A stretch of DNA of 35,057 bases from an uncultured bacterium. GTDB taxonomy: Bacteria > Abyssobacteria > SURF-5. The stretch is from contig CAZSKP010000044.1 of the NCBI GenBank assembly GCA_964607485.1, positions 1 through 35,057 on the forward strand, given 5' to 3'. The notes below the pieces were generated by a model, which was not told the origin of the DNA, ran no database searches, and saw only the letters and a list, made by a program, of their open reading frames with translations. Both the position numbers and the translations under genes were made by a program. Shown in pieces: positions 2,583 through 14,657 of this stretch. The stretch's first letter is position 1. Each line of letters opens with the position of its first letter.

Positions 2583-2760
2583 ATGGGCGCGGGTCCCTCA
2601 AGGGCATCTCCAATGTACCGTGACTTCCCACGCACTCCCTCGTTCACGCCGTTTCTGACGTGGGCCTGCGCTTGCAATTTCGTGCCGCAGCGTGTTAAAA
2701 TTTAAGGGAAGCCATTTTTTCAATCATTCCCTCCCAACATTCGGAAAGTCCGGTTGAATT

Positions 2761-4647
2761 ATGGAAAATTTGCACAAGACATTGAGTCATATCAAAGAAT
2801 CGATGGACCGTTTTGTCATCGGTCACGACGATATCAAAGAGGCGATCCTGCTCGGTCTCATCGCGCGGGAGCATGTGTATTTGGAGGGCCCGCCGGGCAC
2901 GGCCAAAACGATGCTCGCCGAGATAGCCGCAAAAGCGGCGAACCTTAATTTCTTCTTCTACCAGCTCAATCGCGACACCAGGCTTTCCGAGCTCGTGGGC
3001 GACTATATTATCCATCGCGAACGGGAAGACAAGAGCGAGCTGATACGCCAGGAAATCGTCAGGGGCCGCATACTGACTGCCGACATATGCGTGCTCGACG
3101 ACATTTCCCGCGCCCCGGGCGAGGCGCTCAACGTGCTGCTTCGGGTGCTGAACGAACGCAAGTTCGGGAAAGAGCGCATTCCGCTTCTGACAACCATCGC
3201 CACGGGCAACCCTGCGCGCGACGACTACTACAATGAGCCGCTCGACCTTGCGAACCTCGACAGGTTTACATTGCAGCTCCGCATCGTCGGCCTGATACAG
3301 AAGAACCAGTGGGATATGGCCAAGCAGGTCATCGATTTCTATGCCACGCACGACTTCGACGACGCCGAGATAGAGCCGGCCTCGTCGGACAGCCTGAGAG
3401 CGGACAGGGATATTCTGCTCAGGGTGACTCTGCCTGAGTCGGTCAAAGAGATGCTGATCGACTTCGTCTCCGGCCTGATGACGAAGTTCGACCTGAACGA
3501 CAACAACTCCCTGATCACCGACCGGACGTTCCTCGTGAAGGCGGTCAAAATGCTCAAGGCCAAAGCCGTCCTCGAGCACAGATGGGTTGTCGAGCCGCAG
3601 GACTTGATTGTCCTGAAATACATGACCACCTTCCGTGTGCCTCCTGAAGTCCACGAAAAAGTCGAGGAACTCATTCAGGAAGCCGAGCAAAAAAAAAACG
3701 ATGAAGTGAACGAGGACGGCCAGTCCGAGCAACACCCCGGAGAATCCACCCAGAGCGACGAAGGAGAAGAAGCGGTCGAGGCGGAGGCCTTCCCCTCCGA
3801 CGATGAGACCGATCAGGTCTCGCCCTATCGCAAGGAAGTCCACTACGAAAAGATCAAGCGCGACACCCGCCAAAAGGATGAGTCTTCCGCCCTCAACAAG
3901 GAAAAGATAGACGACCTCGACATCATACTGAAGGTTATCGAGGGTGAGGTGCAGCGCAGCATCGCCTCCAAGCGCGAAGTACACGGCGGCGTGCCCAAAC
4001 AGTGGCGCGCCATGCGCACGCTGGAAGACCTGTTCGACTCCGACCCGGGAGAAAGTTCCGTCTGGGTGGAGAACGCGAACCCGGCTACCCCGCGCGTGTT
4101 CCGTCGCACCCGCAAGGAACGCGGCGGGCGGCTGGCCGTCATACGCGACATCAGCCAGTCGATGACCGGCAAGTCGTCGTTGTGGGTCTCGATGGTGGTC
4201 ATCGGGCTTGTCGAGATGGCCAAGCAAAGCAAGATGGCCGTCGGCTACGTCGAGTTCAATCATCAGTCTTACAAGTACCTCGACGGAGGACGCTTCTTCA
4301 CCCGCAATTACGAGGCGCTGATGCGCAAGAGCATGGAGACTCAGTGCTCGGGCTTCACCGATTACCAGAACGCGCTCGACGACGCGTTGAAGGAATTTGC
4401 GGCGACGCGCGGCGGCCGTCAGCACGTGATCTTCCTCACCGACGGCATGCCCACCAGCGGCGATAAAGAGGTCAAGCAGGAACTCAAACTCGCCAAGAAG
4501 ACGGGAGTCGCGATACACTCGATCTTCATCGGGCGCGAACAATGTCCGCCGATCCTCAAGAAGATTTCGAAGGAGACCGGCGGCATACATTTCCAGGTGA
4601 TGCCGAACAAAGAGGGCATGGTCAAGATATTCGAGCTCCTCAACTAG
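2761..4647 (+). CDS. MoxR/RavA-like AAA+ ATPase fused to a C-terminal von Willebrand factor A domain
   Basis: Walker A GPPGTAKT, Walker B VLDD, LLRVLNER, ATGNP, arginine finger LDRF, then an acidic linker. VWA MIDAS elements DISQS, TDY and IFLTDG. Confidence 0.9.
   Translation: MENLHKTLSHIKESMDRFVIGHDDIKEAILLGLIAREHVYLEGPPGTAKTMLAEIAAKAANLNFFFYQLNRDTRLSELVGDYIIHREREDKSELIRQEIVRGRILTADICVLDDISRAPGEALNVLLRVLNERKFGKERIPLLTTIATGNPARDDYYNEPLDLANLDRFTLQLRIVGLIQKNQWDMAKQVIDFYATHDFDDAEIEPASSDSLRADRDILLRVTLPESVKEMLIDFVSGLMTKFDLNDNNSLITDRTFLVKAVKMLKAKAVLEHRWVVEPQDLIVLKYMTTFRVPPEVHEKVEELIQEAEQKKNDEVNEDGQSEQHPGESTQSDEGEEAVEAEAFPSDDETDQVSPYRKEVHYEKIKRDTRQKDESSALNKEKIDDLDIILKVIEGEVQRSIASKREVHGGVPKQWRAMRTLEDLFDSDPGESSVWVENANPATPRVFRRTRKERGGRLAVIRDISQSMTGKSSLWVSMVVIGLVEMAKQSKMAVGYVEFNHQSYKYLDGGRFFTRNYEALMRKSMETQCSGFTDYQNALDDALKEFAATRGGRQHVIFLTDGMPTSGDKEVKQELKLAKKTGVAIHSIFIGREQCPPILKKISKETGGIHFQVMPNKEGMVKIFELLN
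3689..3709 (+). other. A10 homopolymer / A_AAA_AAC slippery site with stops in both shifted frames (candidate programmed frameshift or transcriptional slippage site)
   Basis: CAA AAA AAA AAC GAT GAA GTG A. The A run spans 3689-3698; TGA occurs at 3702-3704 in the -1 frame and at 3707-3709 in the +1 frame. Confidence 0.55.
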
Positions 4648-4683
4648 GTCCAACGCGGTTGACAACCGCGACCCTTTCCTGAA

Positions 4684-5658
4684 ATGAATTCACCGGGCTA
4701 CCTGACCGAGGTCGGCGGCCTGCATGTCGGACACGCGACCGATACTGTCGGCATGACGGGCTGCAGCGTGATTATCTGCGACGCCCCGATGACCGGCGGC
4801 GTTGACGTGCGCGGGTCCGCCACCGGCACGCGCGAGATCGAGCTTCTCCGTCCGACCCACCTGATTCAACACGTCCACGCGGTCCTCCTCTCCGGCGGCA
4901 GCGCCTATGGGCTCGATGCCGCAGCGGGGGTGATGCGTTATCTGGAGGAGCGGGGGAGAGGCTTCGACGTGAAAGTCGCGCGAGTGCCCATCGTGCCCGC
5001 GGCGATCCTGATCGATTTCGGCCTGGGAAGCCCGAAGGCGCGGCCCGACGCCGAGATGGGCTATCTCGCGTGTGAGGGCGCGACCGACGGCGAGTTTTCC
5101 CGGGGCAACGTGGGAGCGGGCACCGGCGCGACCGTCGGAAAAGTGTACGGCATGCCGAATGCAATGAAGGCCGGGCTGGGAACGGCATGTGTGGGGCTTG
5201 ACGGCGGGATCAAAGTCGGCGCGATCGTTGCCGTCAACGCGTTCGGCGACGTGCGCGACCCCGTCGGCGGACGGATAATCGCGGGGGCGAGAGACCCGCA
5301 GGGGAGCGAGTTTGCCGATACCGAAAAGGTCATGAGCGGCGACCTGTCGGCGACGGTGTGGAGCTTCTACAACACCGTCATCGGGCTCGTCGCCACGAAC
5401 GCCCGCTTGAACAAGGAGGAGACAAACAAGCTTGCCCAGATGGCAAGCAACGGGATAGCCCGTACCATCACGCCCGCGCACACTTCCTTCGACGGCGACG
5501 TCGTCTTTGCCTTGAGCAACGCAGAGACAAACCTCTCAGCGCCGGTTTCCGCCCTCGGCTCAGCCGGCGCACAAGCGATGGCGCACGCAATTCTCGACGC
5601 TGTCATGAGCGCCGAGAGCGCCGGAGGTCTTCCCGCCGCCAAAGATGTGGGCTCTTGA
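4684..5658 (+). CDS. P1/S58 family peptidase (DmpA-like L-aminopeptidase/D-esterase)
   Basis: Motifs VGHATD, TGC, DVRGSATGTRE, LSGGSAYGLDAA, GNVGAGTGATVGK, NTVIG and HTSFDGDVVF. Confidence 0.92.
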   Translation: MNSPGYLTEVGGLHVGHATDTVGMTGCSVIICDAPMTGGVDVRGSATGTREIELLRPTHLIQHVHAVLLSGGSAYGLDAAAGVMRYLEERGRGFDVKVARVPIVPAAILIDFGLGSPKARPDAEMGYLACEGATDGEFSRGNVGAGTGATVGKVYGMPNAMKAGLGTACVGLDGGIKVGAIVAVNAFGDVRDPVGGRIIAGARDPQGSEFADTEKVMSGDLSATVWSFYNTVIGLVATNARLNKEETNKLAQMASNGIARTITPAHTSFDGDVVFALSNAETNLSAPVSALGSAGAQAMAHAILDAVMSAESAGGLPAAKDVGS

Positions 5659-5712
5659 CGCCCGGCCTGCTTCTGACGACCCTCCCGAAAACCTCCCGGA
5701 GCCGGCCACAGA

Positions 5713-5742
5713 TTGACACGAATGGTCGATTCCTATTATAAT
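5713..5742 (+). promoter_or_regulatory. consensus sigma70 promoter for the pilT array
   Basis: TTGACA (5713-5718), 18-nt spacer, TATAAT (5737-5742). Confidence 0.75.
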
Positions 5743-5857
5743 CAAACCAGGTCTTGACACCTCAAACTGGGCCGATGAGTACGCCATCGGACAGCTGTAA
5801 GTTTCTGTTTTCGCAATCAGTTGCGCTGAGTCCGTCTGTGCAGACGGGGTATCCATT

Positions 5858-6946
5858 GTGATTGAGCTGGACAAGATTCTTCAGAAAGCCCTCGAGATCC
5901 GGGCGTCAGACGTGCACGTTCTGGTGGGGATGCCTCCGATGATCCGTCATTTTGGCGACATCAAGGTGTTGCCCGGCTTTGATGCCATCGACAAAGACAC
6001 CGCCTGGAAGATGGTGATGGGGATCCTGCAGGTGGACCAGCGGACGGAATTCGAAGTACATAAAGAGGTCGATTTCTGTTACGAGATCCAGGGACTGAGC
6101 CGGTTCAGGACCAATGTGTACCTTGAAGAACGAGGAATTGGCGCCGCCTTCCGGATCGTGCCGTCGGAAATCAGGACCGCTGAGGAGATAGGCGTTTCAG
6201 AGGCGATCAAGGACCTCACCCGGCTTCGCAACGGGCTGGTGTTGGTGACCGGTCCGGCCGGCTGCGGCAAATCGACGACCCTGGCCGCGCTCATCAACCT
6301 CGTGAATCGCGAACGTGGCGAACACATCATAACGATCGAGGACCCGATCGAATTCGTTCACACGAACATCAAGAGCCAGGTGAACCAGAGACAGGTCGGC
6401 ATCCACACACGTTCATTTGCCGCCGCACTGAGGGCGTCGCTCCGCGAGGACCCCGACGTTATCCTCGTGGGCGAGATGCGCGACCTGGAGACTATCTCCA
6501 TGGCTATCACCGCTGCCGAGACGGGCCACCTCGTGTTCAGCACGCTTCACACCCTCAGCGCGTACAAGACGGTCGAACGCATTATCAACGTGTTTCCGCC
6601 CAACCAGCAGAAACAGATACGTACGATGCTTTCGGAATCGCTGGGCGGTGTCATCTCGCAACAGCTCATCAGGAACGCCCAGGGCACTGAGCGGGTGGCC
6701 GCGATGGAGGTCCTTATCGCGACTCCGTCCATCAAGACGATGATTCGCGAGGACAAGACCTACCAGATACCCGGCTACATGCAAGCGGGCCGGAAGTACG
6801 GGATGCGCATGCTCGATGACCACATCTTGGAGCTCCTTCAGCAGGGCAAGGTGGACCCGAAACACGCGTATCAGATGGCCACAAACAAAGATATCGTTCG
6901 GTCCTTCCTTTCTCATGCAAAGGGTCGTGCCAAAGCGAAGGCGTAG
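5858..6946 (+). CDS. pilT: PilT/PilU family type IV pilus retraction ATPase, copy 1 (type A)
   Basis: ASDVH, Walker A GPAGCGKSTT, Asp box TIEDPIE, LREDPDVILVGEMRD, His box AETGHLVFSTLHT. GTG start. Confidence 0.93.
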   Translation: MIELDKILQKALEIRASDVHVLVGMPPMIRHFGDIKVLPGFDAIDKDTAWKMVMGILQVDQRTEFEVHKEVDFCYEIQGLSRFRTNVYLEERGIGAAFRIVPSEIRTAEEIGVSEAIKDLTRLRNGLVLVTGPAGCGKSTTLAALINLVNRERGEHIITIEDPIEFVHTNIKSQVNQRQVGIHTRSFAAALRASLREDPDVILVGEMRDLETISMAITAAETGHLVFSTLHTLSAYKTVERIINVFPPNQQKQIRTMLSESLGGVISQQLIRNAQGTERVAAMEVLIATPSIKTMIREDKTYQIPGYMQAGRKYGMRMLDDHILELLQQGKVDPKHAYQMATNKDIVRSFLSHAKGRAKAKA

Positions 6947-6960
6947 GACGGTGATGCGGC

Positions 6961-8016
6961 TTGGCCGAGATCGACAAACTCCTCAGGTTCCTCGTTGAAC
7001 AGGAGGGCTCGGACCTTCACATGATGTGCGGCGCAAGGCCGCTTATACGGGTGCACGGCGACCTGCGGAGGATAGATTTCGGCGGGGGCGGCGTCGTGCT
7101 CACGCCCGAGATCAACCGCGGCCTGATATATGAAATGCTCAATGAGGACCAGATACGCCATTTCGAGGCGACCGGCGACCTCGACCTGGCATATGAAATC
7201 GACGGCTTGGCCCGCTTTCGAGTGAACGTGCACAACCAGATAAGCGGCCCCTCGACGGTCATGCGCACGATACCCACAGACATCGCCACCGTCGATGAAC
7301 TCGGCCTGCCCGAACAGTTGAAAGAAATCGCCCGCTTCAGCAGTGGACTGATCCTGGTCACCGGCCCGACGGGAAGCGGGAAAACCACCAGCCTGGCCGC
7401 GATGATGGACCAGATAAACGACGAGCGCGAAGGCCACATAGTTACCATCGAGGACCCGATAGAGTTCGTGCACCAGAACAAAAACTGTCTGATCACCCAG
7501 CGAGAGGTGGGCGTTCACACCAACTCGTTCGCGGCCGCCTTGCGCGTCGCGCTCCGCCAGGACCCCGACATAATCCTCGTGGGCGAAATGCGCGACCTGG
7601 AAACCATATCGCTGGCACTCACCGCGGCCGAGACCGGTTCGCTGGTGTTTGCCACGCTTCACACCAACAGCGCGGCGAAGACGATCAACCGTATTATCGA
7701 CGTCTTTCCAAACGACGCGCAGAACCAGATTCGCACGCTTCTGTCGGAGTCGCTTTCGGCCGTCATCGCCCAGACTCTCTTAAAGCGCTCCGACAAGAGG
7801 GGCCGTGTCGCGGCGATGGAAATAATGATATGCAATTCGGCCATCCGCAACGCCATCCGTGAAAATAAGATCGAACAGATCATCTCGATAATGCAGACGA
7901 GCGCTCGCGAGGGGATGCAGATGCTCGACGATCACCTGCTTCGGCTGCTCGAGCAGGGCGTCGTCTCCAAACCGGACGCGCGTGAAAAATCGTTCGAGAA
8001 ACACAGATTCAATTAG
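6961..8016 (+). CDS. pilT: PilT family ATPase, copy 2 (type B)
   Basis: GSDLH, GPTGSGKTT, TIEDPIE, RQDPDIILVGEMRD, AETGSLVFATLHT, AIRNAIRE. TTG start. Confidence 0.93.
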   Translation: MAEIDKLLRFLVEQEGSDLHMMCGARPLIRVHGDLRRIDFGGGGVVLTPEINRGLIYEMLNEDQIRHFEATGDLDLAYEIDGLARFRVNVHNQISGPSTVMRTIPTDIATVDELGLPEQLKEIARFSSGLILVTGPTGSGKTTSLAAMMDQINDEREGHIVTIEDPIEFVHQNKNCLITQREVGVHTNSFAAALRVALRQDPDIILVGEMRDLETISLALTAAETGSLVFATLHTNSAAKTINRIIDVFPNDAQNQIRTLLSESLSAVIAQTLLKRSDKRGRVAAMEIMICNSAIRNAIRENKIEQIISIMQTSAREGMQMLDDHLLRLLEQGVVSKPDAREKSFEKHRFN

Positions 8017-8045
8017 AGAGACAACTTGCAGGAGAACGAAAGCTC

Positions 8046-9158
8046 ATGGCAGCGATAGACTCGGTTCTCATAATGGCAAAGGAAAAGAAGGCCTCCGATG
8101 TCCACCTGTGTTCGAAATCGGTCCCCATGGTCCGTCTGTTCGGGAACATCGTCAAGCTTGAGGGATACGAGGTTCGCGAGCCCGAACAGAACGAACGCGA
8201 ACTTCTTGAAATCATGAATGAGAACCAACTGCAGGAGTTCGACCGCTACAAGGAGATCGACTTCTCCTATGCGATACAGAGAGTCGGTCGCTTTAGGGTG
8301 AATATTCACCAGGAGGAACGTGGCGTCAGCGGTTCCTTCCGAATCATACCCAGCGAGATTCGGACCGCCGACAGCATCGGCCTGCCGGAAGTGGTCAAGG
8401 AGATTACCAGGCGCGAGCAGGGCCTTTTCCTCGTGACCGGCCCGTCCGGCTGCGGCAAATCCACCACTCTTGCGGCCCTCGTGGACATGATAAACCATGA
8501 GCGCGCCTGTCACATCATCACGATTGAGGACCCGATAGAGTTTCAGTACGAAAACAACATGGCGTACATCGACCAGCGGGAGGTGGGCACGCACACGAAA
8601 AGCTTTGCGTCTGCGCTGCGCTCGGTGGTTCGTGAAAATCCGGATGTGATCGTAGTGGGCGAGATGCGCGACCTCGAAACGATATCACTGGCGGTTTCCG
8701 CCGCCGAGACGGGTCACCTCGTGTTCAGCACGCTCCACACCAGGGGCGCGGCGAAGACGATAGAGCGCGTTGTCAACGTGTTTCCGCCCGAACAGCAGTT
8801 CATGATGCGGACCATGATCGGCGAGTCGCTCGTGGGAGTGCTCTCCCAGCAGTTGATGCGCAACGTGAACGGCGACGGCATGACCCTCGCCATCGAGGTG
8901 ATGATCAATACGTCGGCGGTGGCCAGCCTCATCCGTCATGGGGACACATATCGAATTCCCTCGACGATGCAAACCGGCAAGAAATTCGGAATGCAGCTCA
9001 TGGATGAACACATCATCGAGCTCCTCAGGGCGAACAAGATAGACCCGAAGGTGGCTCAGGTGAAGATTGAGGACAAAGGATTGCTTCGAGAATTCCTCCT
9101 TGAACAGCAGAAGGCGGAGGGCAAACTCAAGAAGGAACGGGCCAGGCACAAAGCCTGA
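8046..9158 (+). CDS. pilT: PilT/PilU family ATPase, copy 3 (type A')
   Basis: ASDVH, GPSGCGKSTT, TIEDPIE, RENPDVIVVGEMRD, AETGHLVFSTLHT. RBS GGAG upstream. Confidence 0.93.
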   Translation: MAAIDSVLIMAKEKKASDVHLCSKSVPMVRLFGNIVKLEGYEVREPEQNERELLEIMNENQLQEFDRYKEIDFSYAIQRVGRFRVNIHQEERGVSGSFRIIPSEIRTADSIGLPEVVKEITRREQGLFLVTGPSGCGKSTTLAALVDMINHERACHIITIEDPIEFQYENNMAYIDQREVGTHTKSFASALRSVVRENPDVIVVGEMRDLETISLAVSAAETGHLVFSTLHTRGAAKTIERVVNVFPPEQQFMMRTMIGESLVGVLSQQLMRNVNGDGMTLAIEVMINTSAVASLIRHGDTYRIPSTMQTGKKFGMQLMDEHIIELLRANKIDPKVAQVKIEDKGLLREFLLEQQKAEGKLKKERARHKA

Positions 9159-9171
9159 GGCGGGATTTCAA

Positions 9172-10227
9172 TTGGCCGAGATAGATAGATTCCTGGAATT
9201 TCTGGTGGAACACGACGGCTCCGACCTGATGATAATGTCGGGCTCGAGGGCCGTGGTGAGAATACACGGAGAGTTGAGGCCGATTACCTTCGGGTCCAAC
9301 TCCGACGTGCTCACCGACTCCGTTGTGAGACCGCTGGTGTACGAGATATTGTCGAACAGACAGATCAAGATTCTTGAGGAAGAGGGCGAGCTTGACCTTG
9401 CATACGAGCTGCCTGGAGTGTCGCGGTTCAGGAGCAACGTGTACATGCAGTCGCACGGAATCGCGGTTGCGTTCCGGGCGATTCCCTCTAAGATCAGGAC
9501 GCTTGAAGAACTCGGATTCCCCCCGGGTGTGAAAAAGCTTGCCTCGATGCAGCGAGGCTTTGTGCTCGTGTGCGGACCGTCAGGCTGCGGAAAGACGACG
9601 ACGCTCGCGTCGATGGTGGACTATATCAACAAGACGCGCCAGTGTCACATAATAACCATCGAGGAGCCGATAGAATATCTTCATACGAACATAAAGAGCA
9701 TAATCACCCAACGACAGGTGGGACCTCATACGGAAAGCTTTTCCTCGGCGCTCAGAGTCTCCGTTCGCCAAGACCCCGACGTGATCATGGTCGGCGAGAT
9801 GCGCGACCTGGAAACCATCTCGACCGCACTCACCACGGCCGAGACCGGAGCGCTCGTCTTCGGCACGCTGCACACCGACAACGCCGCAAAGACGATAAAC
9901 CGAATCATCAACGTGTTCCCCTTCGAACAGCGCAACCAGGTGCGTACCCTCCTTTCCGAAACGCTGACGGGCGTGGTCGCTCAGCAACTGCTCACCCGCG
10001 CCGACGGGTCCGGCATGGTGGCTGTGGCCGAGATTCTCATGGGGATTCCCGCAATCTCCAACGCGATACGTGAGGGCAAAATAGAGCAGATGATCTCCAT
10101 CATGGAAACGGGGCGAAGACACGGAATGCAGATACTCGACGAGCATCTGCTCGAACTCGTGCAGAGCTGTGTGATTACTCCCGAGGCGGCACGCAGGAAG
10201 GCCCGCAACAAGAGGTTGTTTGAGTAG
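9172..10227 (+). CDS. pilT: PilT family ATPase, copy 4 (type B')
   Basis: Start set at TTG 9172 by homology with copy 2 (same N-terminus LAEID, same 351-aa length). GPSGCGKTT, TIEEPIE, RQDPDVIMVGEMRD, AETGALVFGTLHT, AISNAIRE. Confidence 0.92.
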   Translation: MAEIDRFLEFLVEHDGSDLMIMSGSRAVVRIHGELRPITFGSNSDVLTDSVVRPLVYEILSNRQIKILEEEGELDLAYELPGVSRFRSNVYMQSHGIAVAFRAIPSKIRTLEELGFPPGVKKLASMQRGFVLVCGPSGCGKTTTLASMVDYINKTRQCHIITIEEPIEYLHTNIKSIITQRQVGPHTESFSSALRVSVRQDPDVIMVGEMRDLETISTALTTAETGALVFGTLHTDNAAKTINRIINVFPFEQRNQVRTLLSETLTGVVAQQLLTRADGSGMVAVAEILMGIPAISNAIREGKIEQMISIMETGRRHGMQILDEHLLELVQSCVITPEAARRKARNKRLFE

Positions 10228-10265
10228 CGCATTGGAACATTCGGATAGCGACGTTCCCCGGGAAC

Positions 10266-11969
10266 ATGGATAGCAGAGGGCTGTTTCGGTCGAAGCGATT
10301 CAAGTCGAATAGGATTGCAGAGGGAATCTGCTGCGCGGCACTCTCGATCTTCGTTTTTGTTGCTTATCGGGATTGTCTGTCCCTCTACGAAACGGGGGAC
10401 TCCGTCGCTTGGCTTCATCGATACCGGTTTCACATCGTCGGTCTCCTCACGCACGGCAGCAGCCCGTTTCACTATCATCCGCTCTCCCTCTTGTGGTACG
10501 GGCTTCCCACATCTTTTTTCGGATTTCATCCTTTTTGGACTCATCTGCAGTCGCTCGCTCTCCACGCGGCAAACGCCGTCATGGTATTCCTGCTGGCTCG
10601 TTTTTTTGTCGGAAAAACGCTGTATGCCTTCGCGGCGGCTGTCCTGTTCGCCACCGGCATCTATGTGGCCGAGACCGTCTTCTGGGGAGGCGGATTCCCG
10701 AACCTTGCAATGACGTTTCTGTTTCTGCTCTGCTTCTTCCTTTTTCGCTCGCATCTCATCAGCGGCTCCCTCTGGACGTTGGGATTGTTCAACGTGCTGT
10801 TTGTTCTTTCACTGTTTGTGTTTCCCACGGCGGTCAATTTCCTCGCAGTCTTTCTTCTCTATGCATTGTGCGACCCTGAAAGACTTTTCGGGAAAAGCGG
10901 GCGTGGGAAAGTCGGGAGCAACGTTTCCCTTATGCTCCGAGCGCTCGCCGCGCCGGCGGTGAGCGTAGTGGTGTTCTTGCTCATCCGTTCATTTTTCGTT
11001 GAAGCGCTCACCTACAACTCTCTAGCCTTCTTCAATCCCGCGGTGGCAAAGGGATTGGCGTCTCGGATGTTTCATGCGTTGGAGTTTTTATTGATTCCTT
11101 CGCAGTTTCTGTTGGCCTTCATCCCTTCACGGCTTCTTGATGTGCAGGGAGTGTATTTCGGCACGAAGCTCATATTCATTCTGGCCGTGCTCGGGGTCAT
11201 GCTATTCAAGATGACCCCCGGAGACGGGTTCCTCGTTTTGTGGCTTCTTTCTCAGGTGTTTCTCGTCTCGCTCGAGACCGACGCCGGGAGCCGCCATCTC
11301 TATTCCGTGTCGGTCGGGGCATCCATCTTGTTGGTGGTGTGCTTGGGGAAGGTAGTCGAAGCCGTTCTGACCTTCGCAGGTACGATTGGCGAGGCACGGC
11401 TTCGGTTGCCGGACGTGCTTTCGAAGACGGGAAAGAGGGGCGCTGCCGCCTTGTTGTTGTGTTTCGGGCTTTTTGTTCCCGTGAAAAACAACTTGACGAA
11501 CGTCGGTTACTTCATGCTCACTTATGAGGAAGCCTCGCGGATCGCGCGATCATCAGTCGAGCATGTGAGGTCGGTCTGTACAAATCCGGCTCCGGAAGGC
11601 GTCACGCTTCTCATCAACATGCCAACCGCCGTCATTCGGGCGGGAAGCGTGCCGTCTTTTGTTCTGCCGGGTGATTCCTTGCTCTCTCTGCTTGACCTGG
11701 AAACCGGGACGCCTGTGTGGAAGGAGAGAAGCGTCATCGGGACGTGTCGCGAATTGTACGTAGAACCCCGGACTGACTGGCGATTCTATAATTACTTGAC
11801 TGTGCCGAAGCACAGGGGTGAGGTTCGAAATTTTTCCGTCCGCGAGCTGGCCATGTTTGCCGAGCAGTCGAATAGGGTATTGGTTTTCGACTATCAGGCC
11901 GAGCTTCCACGCAAAGCGAGCACCGAATGGCTTCTCGACAGGGCGGAGGCCGATCCATCCCGAGGGTGA
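10266..11969 (+). CDS. polytopic membrane protein, GT-C (ArnT/PMT/TMTC-like) glycosyltransferase-like
   Basis: Many TM segments. N-terminal loop GD...YHPL...FG..PF..HLQSLALHAANA resembles GT-C proteins; late RHLY motif; soluble C-terminal tail. Confidence 0.6.
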   Translation: MDSRGLFRSKRFKSNRIAEGICCAALSIFVFVAYRDCLSLYETGDSVAWLHRYRFHIVGLLTHGSSPFHYHPLSLLWYGLPTSFFGFHPFWTHLQSLALHAANAVMVFLLARFFVGKTLYAFAAAVLFATGIYVAETVFWGGGFPNLAMTFLFLLCFFLFRSHLISGSLWTLGLFNVLFVLSLFVFPTAVNFLAVFLLYALCDPERLFGKSGRGKVGSNVSLMLRALAAPAVSVVVFLLIRSFFVEALTYNSLAFFNPAVAKGLASRMFHALEFLLIPSQFLLAFIPSRLLDVQGVYFGTKLIFILAVLGVMLFKMTPGDGFLVLWLLSQVFLVSLETDAGSRHLYSVSVGASILLVVCLGKVVEAVLTFAGTIGEARLRLPDVLSKTGKRGAAALLLCFGLFVPVKNNLTNVGYFMLTYEEASRIARSSVEHVRSVCTNPAPEGVTLLINMPTAVIRAGSVPSFVLPGDSLLSLLDLETGTPVWKERSVIGTCRELYVEPRTDWRFYNYLTVPKHRGEVRNFSVRELAMFAEQSNRVLVFDYQAELPRKASTEWLLDRAEADPSRG

Positions 11970-12008
11970 CACCACCGAGGTACCGACGGAAGGGCAGGGA
12001 ACGTTCCG

Positions 12009-12065
12009 GGTTTACGGTTTGCAGTTTACGGTTTAGAAGCCGGGAACCGTCAACCGTCAACCGTC
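12009..12065. repeat. facing heptamer tandem repeats forming an imperfect hairpin between convergent genes
   Basis: (GGTTTAC-like)x4 at 12009-12036 and (AACCGTC)x3 at 12045-12065. The units are near reverse complements. Confidence 0.7.
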
Positions 12066-13226
12066 TCAGAACTGCCGCAGTAGCTGCTTGGCAATGACTA
12101 TCCGCTGAATCTGCGAAGTGCCCTCACCGATCTCCAACAGCTTCGCGTCGCGCATGTAGCGCTCGACGTGGAACTCCGACGTGTATCCGTATCCGCCCAA
12201 TATCTGAACCGCGTTTGTGCTCGCACGCATGGCCGTCTCCGAGGCGAAGAGCTTCGCTTCTGCGGCTTCTTTCGTGACGGATTCGCCTCTGTCCTTCATC
12301 AGCGCCGCCCTGTGAACAAGCAGTCTGGCCGCGTCTATCTGGGTCGCCATGTCGGCGAGAAGCCATTGAATGGCCTGAAACTGGGCGATCGGCTTGCCGA
12401 ACTGCTCGCGTTCTTTTGCGTACGTGATGCTGTCCTCGAGCGCGCCCCGTGCGATGCCGACGGCGAGCGCGCCGATGCCGATGCGGCCGTTTGTGAGCAC
12501 CTTCAGCGTGTCGGCAAACCCCTCGCCCTCCGTTCCCAGAAGACACTCCCGGGGCAGACGCAGGTCCTCAAGGGCGATTTCCGCCGTGTCGCTGGCATGC
12601 ATGCCGAGCTTGTTCAGAATCTTACGGGCGGAGTATCCGGGGGTCGGCGACCCGCCTTTACGTGTCTCGACGACGAAGGCGGAGATGGGCCTCTTCCCGT
12701 TGCCCTTTCCCGTCGCCGCCATGATAACGCAGATGTCTGCGACGGTACCCTGCGTGATGAACATTTTCGAGCCGTTCAGCACCCATTCGTCTCCGTCCAG
12801 ACGGGCGGTCGTCCTCATCGAAGCAGCATCGCTCCCGGAGCCGGGTTCGGTGAGCCCCCACGCTCCCAGCTTCTCGCCGCGCGCGAGCGGCGCGACGTAT
12901 CGCTGCTTCTGCTCTTCATCGGCCGCCACCATGAGATGTCCCAGGCAGAGCGAGTTCTGGGCGGCCATGTTCAACGCGACCGAAGCGTCCCATCGCGCTA
13001 TCTCTTCCATAACCATGGTGTAAGCCAACACACCCAGTTCGGCGCCGCCGTATTGCTCCGGAACCAGCATGCCCATGAAGCCCAGCGGACCAAGCTTCTT
13101 CATTATCTCCATGGGATATTCGCGATTGGCGTCGCGCTTGATGGCCTTCGGAGCGAGTTCCTTCAGCGCGAACTCACGGGAGGTCTGCTGAAGAATTCTC
13201 AATTCTTCTGTCAGTTCGAAGTCCAC
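12066..13226 (-). CDS. acyl-CoA dehydrogenase (short/branched-chain type)
   Basis: GLTEPGSGSDA, LNGSKMFIT, KLGM, GRIGIGA, REQFGKPI, QILGGYGY, RDAK..EIGEGTSQIQR. RBS GGAG before the GTG start. Confidence 0.96.
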   Translation of the reverse strand: MDFELTEELRILQQTSREFALKELAPKAIKRDANREYPMEIMKKLGPLGFMGMLVPEQYGGAELGVLAYTMVMEEIARWDASVALNMAAQNSLCLGHLMVAADEEQKQRYVAPLARGEKLGAWGLTEPGSGSDAASMRTTARLDGDEWVLNGSKMFITQGTVADICVIMAATGKGNGKRPISAFVVETRKGGSPTPGYSARKILNKLGMHASDTAEIALEDLRLPRECLLGTEGEGFADTLKVLTNGRIGIGALAVGIARGALEDSITYAKEREQFGKPIAQFQAIQWLLADMATQIDAARLLVHRAALMKDRGESVTKEAAEAKLFASETAMRASTNAVQILGGYGYTSEFHVERYMRDAKLLEIGEGTSQIQRIVIAKQLLRQF

Positions 13227-13337
13227 TGTCCTCTCCTTGAATCATTCGCCTTTTGGTGTGAGGGGGTTTCAAAACGGTCCGAATCGCAAGGGGTGAGATG
13301 TCCTTCGGACCGTGGAACAACCGGCAGTTACGGCAAG

Positions 13338-13378
13338 AGCTTACCAGAAAAAGGGTCGGGCTGTCAATTGAGCCCGAC
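13338..13378 (-). promoter_or_regulatory. promoter of the acyl-CoA dehydrogenase gene overlapped by an 8-bp inverted repeat
   Basis: On the minus strand: TTGACA (13367-13362), 18 nt, TG-g-TAAGCT (13343-13338). The inverted repeat GTCGGGCT (13355-13362)/AGCCCGAC (13371-13378) straddles the -35. Confidence 0.5.
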
Positions 13379-13450
13379 GTACGCCGCCGCACTTGTGTTT
13401 CCCGTTGCTCCGATGGTATTCTTAAACGTGTCTGATGGTTAGTCTTCGAT

Positions 13451-13560
13451 GGGGACCGTCCCAAGAATTACGGGCCGAGCCCGTCGAGACCGTAGATTCG
13501 GGACTGTCCCCAGAGCAACCTTGTGGTCAAACCAATCATTGAACATTCTCACTGTCCCCA
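13451..13560. repeat. cluster of short palindromic GGGAC(C/T)GTCCC REP-like motifs
   Basis: GGGGACCGTCCC (13451-13462), GGGACTGTCCCC (13500-13511) and partial ACTGTCCCC (13551-13559), spaced about 50 nt apart. Confidence 0.55.
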
Positions 13561-13581
13561 GACCCCGCTTTGGGTTTTAGT

Positions 13582-14229
13582 ATGAAACCAATAATTGTGC
13601 TCGGAATCGACCTGGCCGGCTCGCCGAAACGGCCTACGGGCATCTGTCGTTTGACGGGACTGACCGCAAGCACGCGCGAGGTTTTCTCAGATGAGGAAAT
13701 CCTCGAGAGCGCGGCTCCGGACGTCCGGCTTGTGGCCATCGACGCTCCGCTGAGCCTGCCGCGCGGCCGCTGCTGCCTGCGTGACGATTGCGATTGCGCC
13801 GGCAGGGCACACTTCAGGGAGTGCGACACCGAGCTTCGCACGCTCGGGATCAGGTTCTTCCCGATAACGCTCGGCCCGATGCGCATGCTCACCCGGCGGG
13901 GGATGCAGCTTAAGGATGAGTTCGAGAAAAGAGGCTTCGAGGTGGTCGAGACCTTTCCCGGCGGCGCGCAGGACATCTGGGGGATGCCCCGGCAGAAAAA
14001 CCCGGCGGGCCTTCGGCGCTCGCTGAGAGAGTTCGGCGTGAAGGGCGACATCCGCAAGCGCGGCATCTCGGTGCACGAGCTCGACGCAATCACGTGCGCG
14101 CTCGCGGCGAGATGCTACATCCAGCGGAACTTTCTCGCCACCGGCGACCCGACTGAAGGTCAGATAATCCTTCCCCGGCCCAAAAAGAAATCACGCCCGA
14201 CACGAACAAAGACGAACCACACGAAATGA
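13582..14229 (+). CDS. DUF429 family protein (predicted RNase H-fold nuclease)
   Basis: Motifs GIDLAG, VAIDAPLSLP, RECD..L, VVETFP and HELDA..CA. Confidence 0.85.
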   Translation: MKPIIVLGIDLAGSPKRPTGICRLTGLTASTREVFSDEEILESAAPDVRLVAIDAPLSLPRGRCCLRDDCDCAGRAHFRECDTELRTLGIRFFPITLGPMRMLTRRGMQLKDEFEKRGFEVVETFPGGAQDIWGMPRQKNPAGLRRSLREFGVKGDIRKRGISVHELDAITCALAARCYIQRNFLATGDPTEGQIILPRPKKKSRPTRTKTNHTK

Positions 14230-14234
14230 TGGCA

Positions 14235-14657
14235 CTAAACGCGCCTAGGGATTCTGTTTCCGAGAAAGCCCCAGAGCCCCCCGCTGGCAAAGCCCAGAAG
14301 GAAATATATCAGAAGGTAGGGCAGAATAACGATGAACCAATAGGTTCTCTCCAACTCCGCCTTCTCAAAGACTATGAAATGCAATACACAGACTGCTGAT
14401 GACAAGAGAGCAAAAAATAATCCAACCTTAAGAAATGCATGCTTGCCCCACGACGGTCCCAGAAAGAGGCCGGGCAATCCTATTGCCAGAGTGATTAACA
14501 CGAATCTTGCCACAACCGCCAGTAGATGAGGAATCGTTCCGAAGATTTTGAAGCCGCCTTCTCTTAGCTGGTCTTCCATGATGGTGTTCATCGGATTAAG
14601 AAAATAGCAGAGAAGAAGGAAGAGAATCCCGATACACGGCACCTTCAAGCGGCTCAT
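14235..14657 (-). CDS. hypothetical small membrane protein (about 4 TM)
   Basis: Hydrophobic ORF, visibly more AT-rich than its neighbours. ATG 14657 is preceded by AGGGAAA; a TTGACA-17-TATACA promoter-like site lies at 14812-14784. Confidence 0.6.
   Translation of the reverse strand: MSRLKVPCIGILFLLLCYFLNPMNTIMEDQLREGGFKIFGTIPHLLAVVARFVLITLAIGLPGLFLGPSWGKHAFLKVGLFFALLSSAVCVLHFIVFEKAELERTYWFIVILPYLLIYFLLGFASGGLWGFLGNRIPRRV

Follow-up and report, generated by a model that had tools for sequence, protein, structure and literature searches.

The window analyzed here, the 35,057-nucleotide (nt) contig CAZSKP010000044.1 of the uncultured Abyssobacteria (SURF-5) assembly GCA_964607485.1, carries a gene in which a MoxR/RavA-type AAA+ ATPase module is fused through an acidic linker to a VWA domain, with a run of ten adenines (A10) at the junction. 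We propose that this run is likely a programmed slippage site, probably acting at the level of transcription, by which one gene gives rise to two subunits. If transcriptional and ribosomal slippage are considered together, the two-product reading is very likely correct, and we have high confidence that recoding at the run is used by the gene family; it is also likely that the in-frame gene of the window itself makes and uses the short form. An earlier sequence-only reading of this stretch had put forward the same core idea, namely, that slippage yields free AAA+ protomers in addition to an AAA+-VWA fusion. The idea is now supported by comparative evidence: a conserved run, the existence of both frame states among orthologs, selection on a VWA part that lacks a start codon, and lineages that encode the two forms by two genes.

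The A10 run and its predicted products

All coordinates of the junction were re-derived from the sequence, which confirmed the A10, the A_AAA_AAC heptamer and their position where the AAA+ module meets the linker, as described in the sequence-only reading. The relevant features are as follows.

2761..4647, forward strand: MoxR/RavA-type AAA+/linker/VWA fusion gene, based on the open reading frame (ORF), its translation and Pfam matches; 628 amino acids (aa), 71.6 kDa in the genomic A10 frame
3689..3698, forward strand: proposed recoding site, the slippage-prone A10, in CAA AAA AAA AAC (codons 310-313; Q310 K311 K312 N313)
3702..3704, forward strand: TGA in the -1 frame, predicted to terminate the product of an A11 transcript or of a -1 shift (314 aa, ending in QKKKR)
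3707..3709, forward strand: TGA in the +1 frame, predicted to terminate the product of an A9 or A12 transcript (315 or 316 aa, ending in TMK)
3677..3682, forward strand: AGGAAG, resembling a Shine-Dalgarno (SD) element; present in the window sequence, not a conserved feature of the family

Simulating different run lengths gave a 314-aa protein of 36.2 kDa with the C terminus QKKKR for A11 and a 315-aa protein ending in QKKTMK for A9, in agreement with the two stop codons and products predicted earlier, while A12 and A13 gave proteins of 316 and 629 aa, respectively. Both shifted frames meet a stop codon one to three codons past the A10. The run had been noted as the only long A run of the gene; it is in fact the sole run of eight or more adenines in the window and the longest A/T homopolymer of the whole assembly (4.70 Mb in 93 contigs, the window being contig C44), which contains eight A/T runs of at least 9 (four A9, three T9 and this A10). 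A true length of A9 or A11, which would have made the fusion an assembly artifact, was not what we found, since two sequencing runs yielded a gap-free A10, in contigs of X1 (probably the sample from which the assembly came) and in a single contig of X2 (a second sample from the same study).

Two of the A9 runs of this genome fall within long ORFs (G000:C20:23925-23933, codon 329 of 565, and G000:C36:6194-6202, codon 324 of 349, minus strand) and could be additional slippage-prone coding sites.

Conservation of the run among orthologs

Orthologs were searched for in 41 genomes and found in 10, and a scan with one genome per species found 247 relatives, of which 80 loci were retained. A metagenome scan with a single-protein query returned four loci, of which one was full length (L113, A10 in frame). 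After removal of seven duplicates and of the truncated locus L035, the final set comprised 82 loci, with protein identities of 43 to 88%. A run of A9 to A11 was present at the AAA+/VWA junction in 68 of these 82 nonduplicate loci, 10 with A9, 56 with A10 and 2 with A11, and none of the runs was shorter than nine, the approximate A/T threshold for slippage that we took from PMC3711429 and PMC5009743. The run-bearing loci come from metagenome-assembled genomes (MAGs) labeled Abyssobacteria (82 to 88% identity), Nitrospinota, Entotheonella/Tectimicrobiota, Zymogenaceae and other deltaproteobacterial MAGs, and Dadabacteria/Thermodesulfobacteriota.

The run occupies codon phases 0, 1 and 2 in 42, 15 and 11 loci, respectively, and its flanks vary by lineage (CAA, AAT, CGA, GAT or TCT on the 5' side and C, T or G on the 3' side). 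Lysine codons outside the run in the same genes are preferentially AAG (1604 AAG versus 1156 AAA, 58% AAG), and locus L048 keeps its A10 though only 2 of its 23 other lysine codons are AAA. Given the three codon phases, the varied flanks and this AAG-preferring lysine usage, we conclude that the conserved signal lies in the nucleotides and not in the residues. The sequence-only reading had left it to the homologs to decide between a conserved poly-A tract and lysines encoded by AAG, or no tract at all; the comparison came out in favor of the tract, which is kept despite the AAG preference elsewhere. All seven full-length in-frame orthologs at 82 to 88% identity (L002-L007, L113) have A10 or A11, and the in-frame genes of Nitrospinota and Entotheonella likewise retain the run.

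Sequences around the run were compared in 25 representative loci. By reading, SD-like words in the 20 nt 5' of the run are missing in about half of them, including Entotheonella and the Zymogenaceae clade, and no RNA structure is shared in the 70 nt 3' of the run (folding z scores of -2.3 to +2.2). The SD-like AGGAAG to which attention had been drawn earlier is thus present in the window but lacks conservation in the family, and conserved stimulators, whether an SD-like element or a downstream structure, were dismissed as unsupported in these representatives.

Both frame states occur among run-bearing genes

The two halves share one frame in 24 loci, including the window, and the other 44 have the VWA half in the -1 frame. 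All 44 would be repaired by one additional A or by a -1 shift, and the opposite direction was never required. One of them, L009, was counted as out of frame by inspection and set aside as a clean case, since a scaffold gap and a duplicated segment follow its run; another, L094, has 3.8x coverage and an additional upstream frame break. According to a quick maximum-likelihood tree built from 94 N-domain rows, the frame state changed at least five times, four of these changes being forced by well-supported branches, and the states are clade-consistent, with, for example, 32 of 32 loci out of frame in one Dadabacteria subclade. Judging from their names (NODE_, k87, k127, k141), at least 11 out-of-frame loci lie on short-read-style contigs, and the out-of-frame state is therefore not a long-read homopolymer error. 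Among 68 database matches, there was no protein of at least 661 aa with more than 66% identity to the C-terminal part of the main Dadabacteria clade, a blank that is weak evidence; this clade appears to be fixed in the out-of-frame state.

Orthologs annotated as separate halves, which the sequence-only reading had suggested might exist, were found in the databases. Common among the 120 short matches listed are ATPase forms (about 310 to 330 aa) and VWA halves (about 300 aa), and the nine short entries fetched consisted of eight ATPase forms ending just past the run and one VWA half beginning just before it. Short ATPase entries of the G010 clade (P0131, P0133, P0135, P0137) have the C terminus KKSLMTR or similar ones.

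In Entotheonella DD2, the gene is present as a tandem pair (L041 and L115; G042:C1, about 5200-14331) with 87% DNA identity over 3.1 kb. In both copies, the A10 is followed by TAG and the VWA half is in the -1 frame.

Evidence for translation of the out-of-frame VWA half

The region between the two frames was analyzed in 43 out-of-frame loci, L009 being left out. In all 43, the VWA frame contains no ATG, GTG or TTG 5' of the run. In 30 of the 43 loci, it is closed there by a TAA in which a T is joined to the run's first two A's, and in 29 of the 43 the overlap of the two open frames is only 25 nt: what is left of the run, 14 nt more and the stop codon. Seven loci also lack a start codon in the VWA frame over the 67 to 68 codons that follow the run. 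This start-less segment carries the motif ARKTFF.ALK.LK.NL, which is common to in-frame relatives, and its ratio of nonsynonymous to synonymous substitution rates (dN/dS) in close pairs is 0.02 to 0.09, in comparison with 0.04 to 0.15 for the whole C-terminal part and 0.04 to 0.06 for the N-terminal ATPase part (computable pairs only). Because the VWA part has no start codon of its own and yet is under purifying selection in the -1 frame, it must be reached by recoding at the run. Recoding in the out-of-frame members is thereby demonstrated as far as sequence alone allows.

Lineages without the run carry a second gene

The run is absent from 14 of the 82 loci, assigned to SAR324, Lambdaproteobacteria and one Myxococcota label, and each of these 14 consists of an in-frame fusion and a stand-alone AAA+ gene located 29 to 455 nt downstream. 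The fusions have a variant P-loop, GEPGCAKT, in the copies inspected. Identity to the ATPase of the window is 54 to 58% for the stand-alone proteins and 33 to 52% for the run-less fusions. The stand-alone AAA+ protein ends about 20 residues past the FRVP motif, at a point equivalent to residue ~314 of the window protein, and its end thus coincides with that of the slippage product predicted for the window gene. A KKK motif is found in neither gene of the pairs. Thirteen of the 14 stand-alone ATPases group together (support, 100) within the run-bearing clade (support, 93), with the Myxococcota copy (L108) placed apart on a long branch, and the ATPase domains of the pair fusions are on long branches, 12 of 13 in a single clade (support, 98).

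Within the flank examined, none of the 68 run-bearing loci has a second AAA+ gene. In the genome of the window (G000), the only other matches are paralogs of 27% identity on contigs C11 and C6, in line with the earlier statement that no separate MoxR gene is present nearby. Two Dadabacteria chromosomes hold a single copy and no further gene of the family, and genome G044, labeled Thermodesulfobacteriota, has only paralogs at 32% identity or less.

The protein is a MoxR/RavA-class ATPase fused to a VWA partner

The domains and motifs of the encoded protein are listed below. Invariance refers to alignment A1, which consists of 14 family sequences at 47 to 88% identity.

2761..3687, forward strand: AAA+ module, residues 1-309 (Pfam; nearest solved structures, 2r44 and RavA); counterpart of the stand-alone AAA+ gene of run-less lineages
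2887..2910, forward strand: Walker A, GPPGTAKT, residues 43-50; seven of eight residues invariant, T47 nearly so
3097..3102, forward strand: Walker B with DD (D113 D114), invariant; DE in 2r44 and RavA (pairwise alignments)
3709..4092, forward strand: acidic linker, residues 317-444, mostly disordered by model confidence, with 32 D+E and 16 K+R per 128 residues
4093..4632, forward strand: VWA domain, residues 445-624 (Pfam VWA at 460-618; model secondary structure; VWA matches with Foldseek)
4147..4161, forward strand: DxSxS motif of the metal ion-dependent adhesion site (MIDAS; D463, S465, S467; completed by T533 and D561), in invariant columns

We take D463, S465, S467, T533 and D561 to represent the MIDAS pattern. 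In the Pfam search, the bpMoxR, AAA_5 and AAA_3 models cover residues 8-180, AAA_lid_8 covers 233-289, and VWA covers 460-618. The best match was PF20030 with 80.3 bits (cutoff, 27), followed by PF07728 with 73.6 (22) and PF07726 with 41.7 (27); the RavA-type lid PF17868 scored 30.2 bits (cutoff, 22.8) and the VWA model PF00092 38.5 bits. NCBIfam matches were weak, at 57 bits for RavA, 36.3 versus a cutoff of 779.45 for the putative cobaltochelatase model TIGR02442, and 17.9 versus 499.55 for BchD-ChlD (TIGR02031), and the ChlI-type PF01078 remained at 18.6 bits, below its cutoff of 20.3. A family profile matched the solved structures 2r44_A (E value, 2.5e-24) and RavA (E value, 2.5e-14), and the same search returned no BchI/ChlI structure at an E value of 0.01 or less. 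With the AlphaFold2 model, the first four Foldseek ranks were 2r44 and RavA. This model has a moderate mean confidence (pLDDT, the predicted local distance difference test score, of 62.5), with a last lid helix at 301-318, disorder at 317-382 and a VWA fold at 445-624; the pLDDT is below 50 over 317-382 and 402-453. In the otherwise variable linker region, K311 is invariant and K312 nearly invariant.

A CobN/ChlH large subunit (PF02514) was not matched in the genome of the window, which is 97.5% complete, while 5 of 14 control genomes were positive in the same search. As the ChlD and ChlI models failed and the MoxR models passed, the protein is a MoxR/RavA-class ATPase fused to a VWA partner, with a ChlD-like architecture but not a ChlD identity; ChlD/BchD was ruled out by the sub-cutoff scores of TIGR02031, TIGR02442 and PF01078 together with the lack of a ChlH/CobN match. 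Some JGI annotations of relatives read "MoxR-like ATPase/Mg-chelatase subunit ChlD."

The DD form of Walker B, being invariant across the 14 sequences, may mean that ATP hydrolysis is slow or altered throughout the family.

Proposed mechanism

In the favored explanation, RNA polymerase would slip on the run and generate a mixture of A10, A11, A12 and further transcripts. Messages with A10 or A13 would encode the 72-kDa AAA+-linker-VWA protein, while those with A11, A9 or A12 would encode a 36-kDa AAA+-only protein that stops one to three codons past the run. A -1 ribosomal slip on A_AAA_AAA, a possible contributor, would lead to identical proteins. The short and long forms would then build a MoxR-type ring in which VWA (MIDAS) adaptors are fewer than ATPase protomers: a homo-hexamer of the fusion would display six VWA domains, and ATPase-only protomers would permit rings with fewer. 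For this organism, we infer slippage and use of the short form from its relatives, and by analogy with NorQ6:NorD1 or ChlI/ChlD we infer a ring with fewer adaptors.

Published precedents are compatible with such a mechanism. At runs of nine A's or nine T's, bacterial RNA polymerase adds up to six bases, and Thermus dnaX combines slippage with close stop codons in both other frames (PMC5009743). At an efficiency near 50%, a single-base change can swap the product that needs the shift (PMC5009743), and the repeated flips between the in-frame and -1 states fit a slippage efficiency not far from one half. For the -1 shift at the poly-A of Mg-chelatase genes, Escherichia coli cassettes with 7, 9 and 11 A's gave 10, 40 and 63% (PMC3711429). 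The account of chlD and dnaX recoding on which the sequence-only reading had drawn agrees with PMC3711429, PMC5009743 and PMC9227772. We favor transcriptional slippage because the run always comprises at least nine A's and because no stimulators are conserved.

We also lean, for the two statements taken jointly and with less assurance, toward the view that a poly-A of at least 9 is a stoichiometry-setting device of a self-contained MoxR-VWA machine in many phyla and, in its boldest form, that recoding at the AAA+/VWA junction either predates the split between two branches of the helix-2-insert AAA+ clade, MoxR-VWA and ChlD, or arose twice within that clade. Transcriptional slippage of about 50% would supply ATPase-only and ATPase-adaptor protomers from a single gene, and such an efficiency would explain why flips between the in-frame and -1 states are harmless and how one lineage could switch to a gene pair.

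Several observations weigh against slippage with a used short product in this gene. The window gene is in frame, so that its full-length protein requires no recoding, and the case for its using the short form draws on homology to out-of-frame and two-gene lineages. The stop codons near the run in the other frames may reflect the GAT/GAA-rich composition of the acidic linker. At least as many A8 matches as in the window were reached in 13 of 100 dinucleotide shuffles, and the improbability of the A10 at the level of the window, not being significant, was dropped as support. Many of the out-of-frame loci are from long-read assemblies, which are error-prone at homopolymers. The state of the run also varies in close relatives: P0123 ends in QKKKR, which implies A11 followed by C and thus variation at the DNA level, and the C termini QKKKMN of P0122 and QKKKMK of P0124 imply A10 followed by G. 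In Entotheonella G041, a run-bearing in-frame gene coexists with an unlinked run-less fusion (L116, G041:C1:2031000-2034200), a 640-aa open frame with 63% identity to the SAR324-type fusion and without an adjoining stand-alone ATPase; the mutual exclusion of the run and a second AAA+ gene is strong but not absolute. Finally, sequence cannot separate transcriptional from ribosomal slippage, and no conserved neighbor hints at a substrate.

Alternative explanations

The same two products could arise mainly by -1 programmed ribosomal frameshifting on an in-phase A_AAA_AAA, the mechanism of E. coli dnaX and the one suggested for the frameshifted chlD genes (fs-chlD); we regard this as fairly unlikely. 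An exact -1 shift is what all 44 out-of-frame loci need, an in-phase A_AAA_AAA is available in any of the three phases of an A10, the window additionally offers A_AAA_AAC, and descriptions of the chlD precedent call it ribosomal, with purifying selection on A_AAA_AAR (PMC5009743, PMC9227772). For such a shift a heptamer would suffice, yet the run is never below nine in the 68 loci, and neither a downstream structure nor an upstream SD-like word is conserved in the 25 loci compared. Base-adding slippage explains the exclusive need for one A equally well, and by adding two A's it would also rescue the A11+C state implied for P0123. In another reading, any truncated product would be noise and the run an inherited relic in this in-frame lineage, in which only the full-length fusion would matter. 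The open genomic frame, which makes recoding unnecessary, and the existence of run-less AAA+-VWA fusions are what one would expect of a relic, but these fusions are accompanied by a stand-alone AAA+ gene in 14 of 14 loci. Moreover, A10 or A11 persists in all seven full-length in-frame relatives at 82 to 88% identity and the run persists in in-frame Nitrospinota and Entotheonella genes despite the AAG preference, the run is the longest A/T run of the genome, and an A10 is expected to slip anyway, given reporter values of 40% for nine and 63% for 11 A's (PMC3711429). We consider a relic unlikely.

Still less probable is a hypermutable DNA tract, in which slipped-strand mispairing would cause phase-variation-like switching, or drift of lineages between fused and split states, with no recoding by RNA polymerase or the ribosome. 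The close relatives of the window do vary, with A10+C, A11+G and the implied A11+C and A10+G (P0122-P0124), the tree requires at least five flips, and DNA polymerase also slips on poly-A (PMC3711429). The states nevertheless follow clades, as in the Dadabacteria subclade with 32 of 32, and no in-frame version was seen among the 68 longer matches. The start-less segment is under purifying selection in the -1 frame, thus indicating that it is translated as part of a fusion, the tract falls on the boundary between domains in a cytoplasmic ATPase and has been retained across phyla, and the run-less lineages encode both forms simultaneously. That the run lengths were simply misassembled or misread, making the fusion or the frameshifts erroneous, has a negligible probability: homopolymers are error-prone, and L009 with its gap and duplication and L094 with its low coverage and extra frame break illustrate the problem, but the A10 was recovered in contigs of two runs, the same state recurs in dozens of independent assemblies with short- and long-read-style contig names, and the states track phylogeny.

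Comparison with known systems

The programmed slippage proposed for MoxR-VWA genes most closely recalls fs-chlD (Antonov et al. 2013, PMC3711429; Kuznetsov et al. 2022, PMC9227772). Both have the AAA+/acidic linker/VWA (MIDAS) architecture and a poly-A shift site at the end of the AAA+ module acting in the -1 direction; in fs-chlD, the small subunit corresponds to the short product and the medium subunit to the long one, and there, as here, relatives are fused, frameshifted or encoded by two adjoining genes. Some fs-chlD genes occur in genomes without chelatase pathways. As differences, the ATPase is of the MoxR/RavA type here and of the ChlI type in fs-chlD, the genome of the window has no CobN/ChlH match, and the conserved element is a stretch of at least nine A's here, in contrast to a heptamer with a downstream structure there.

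The tau/gamma products of dnaX (Thermus thermophilus, A9; Chlorobi, two-ORF A10; PMC5009743, PMC3711429) share with the present system the A9-A10 run, close stop codons in both other frames, a short product without the C-terminal domains of the long one, and orthologs in both genomic configurations. The clamp loader is unrelated in family and function to MoxR-VWA, and measurements on dnaX have established heterogeneous transcripts and a 1:1 ratio of products, whereas the MoxR-VWA products are predicted from sequence.

As in NorQ/NorD, CbbQ/CbbO and RavA/ViaA, a MoxR-class ATPase is combined with a VWA/MIDAS partner. A NorQ hexamer binds one NorD (PMC9976466), with a VWA finger in the pore (PMC13036017), and the NorQ6:NorD1 ratio gives a reason why more ATPase protomers than VWA units might be made. 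Unlike in these systems, the ATPase and the VWA domain belong to a single gene, no conserved substrate gene adjoins it, and Walker B has DD where 2r44 and RavA have DE. The bpMoxR proteins of MoxR-vWA-beta-propeller ternary systems are related through PF20030, the best Pfam match, but no separate vWA or beta-propeller gene adjoins the gene here or in 26 loci of other lineages (39 flanking ORFs scanned).

We found no literature report of recoding in MoxR-VWA genes, although such genes may have been included under the name chlD in earlier chlD sets, and "MoxR" and "von Willebrand" are absent from the accessible parts of the recoding surveys PMC5009743 and PMC3711429. The case is one of a known trick, the logic of fs-chlD and dnaX, in a new family.

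Implications

If the proposal is correct, a large recoded family, mostly known from MAGs, would join dnaX and chlD as an example of subunit ratios set by slippage. Hundreds of pairs annotated as "MoxR family ATPase" and "VWA domain protein" that overlap at a poly-A would probably be single recoded genes, and full-length annotations such as that of the window gene would conceal a second product. The family would constitute a natural experiment on the number of VWA adaptors preferred by a MoxR ring, as well as a test bed for transcriptional versus ribosomal slippage, since the site is available both in frame and out of frame, together with a two-gene control lineage. Should the boldest form hold, junction recoding would be a general design rule of AAA+ machines that combine a ring with a tethered adaptor.

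Gene neighborhood and minor observations

The genes around the MoxR-VWA gene in the window are the following.

591-2582: glycogen-branching-type (GlgB-like) enzyme with CBM48, alpha-amylase and alpha-amylase C domains
4684-5658: S58 (DmpA-like) peptidase, by domain match
5858-9158: three consecutive T2SSE secretion/pilus ATPase genes (PilB/PilT-like; 362, 351 and 370 aa), by family match, about 1.2 kb 3' of the MoxR-VWA gene

The S58 peptidase also adjoins the gene in the relatives L003 and L007 and does not do so in other phyla. Flanking genes differ by lineage, encoding YceG in Dadabacteria, a short-chain dehydrogenase in Entotheonella, HGD-D in the Zymogenaceae clade and an M14 peptidase in SAR324, and a conserved neighborhood was for that reason rejected as a clue to the substrate.

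On the opposite strand, a 656-aa open frame (window positions 2695-4665, minus strand) spans the whole MoxR-VWA gene and is probably a shadow ORF of a GC-rich gene. Elsewhere in the genome, G20 and G51 homopolymers lie 3 bases apart (G000:C28:63713-63786) and most likely represent a sequencing or assembly artifact.

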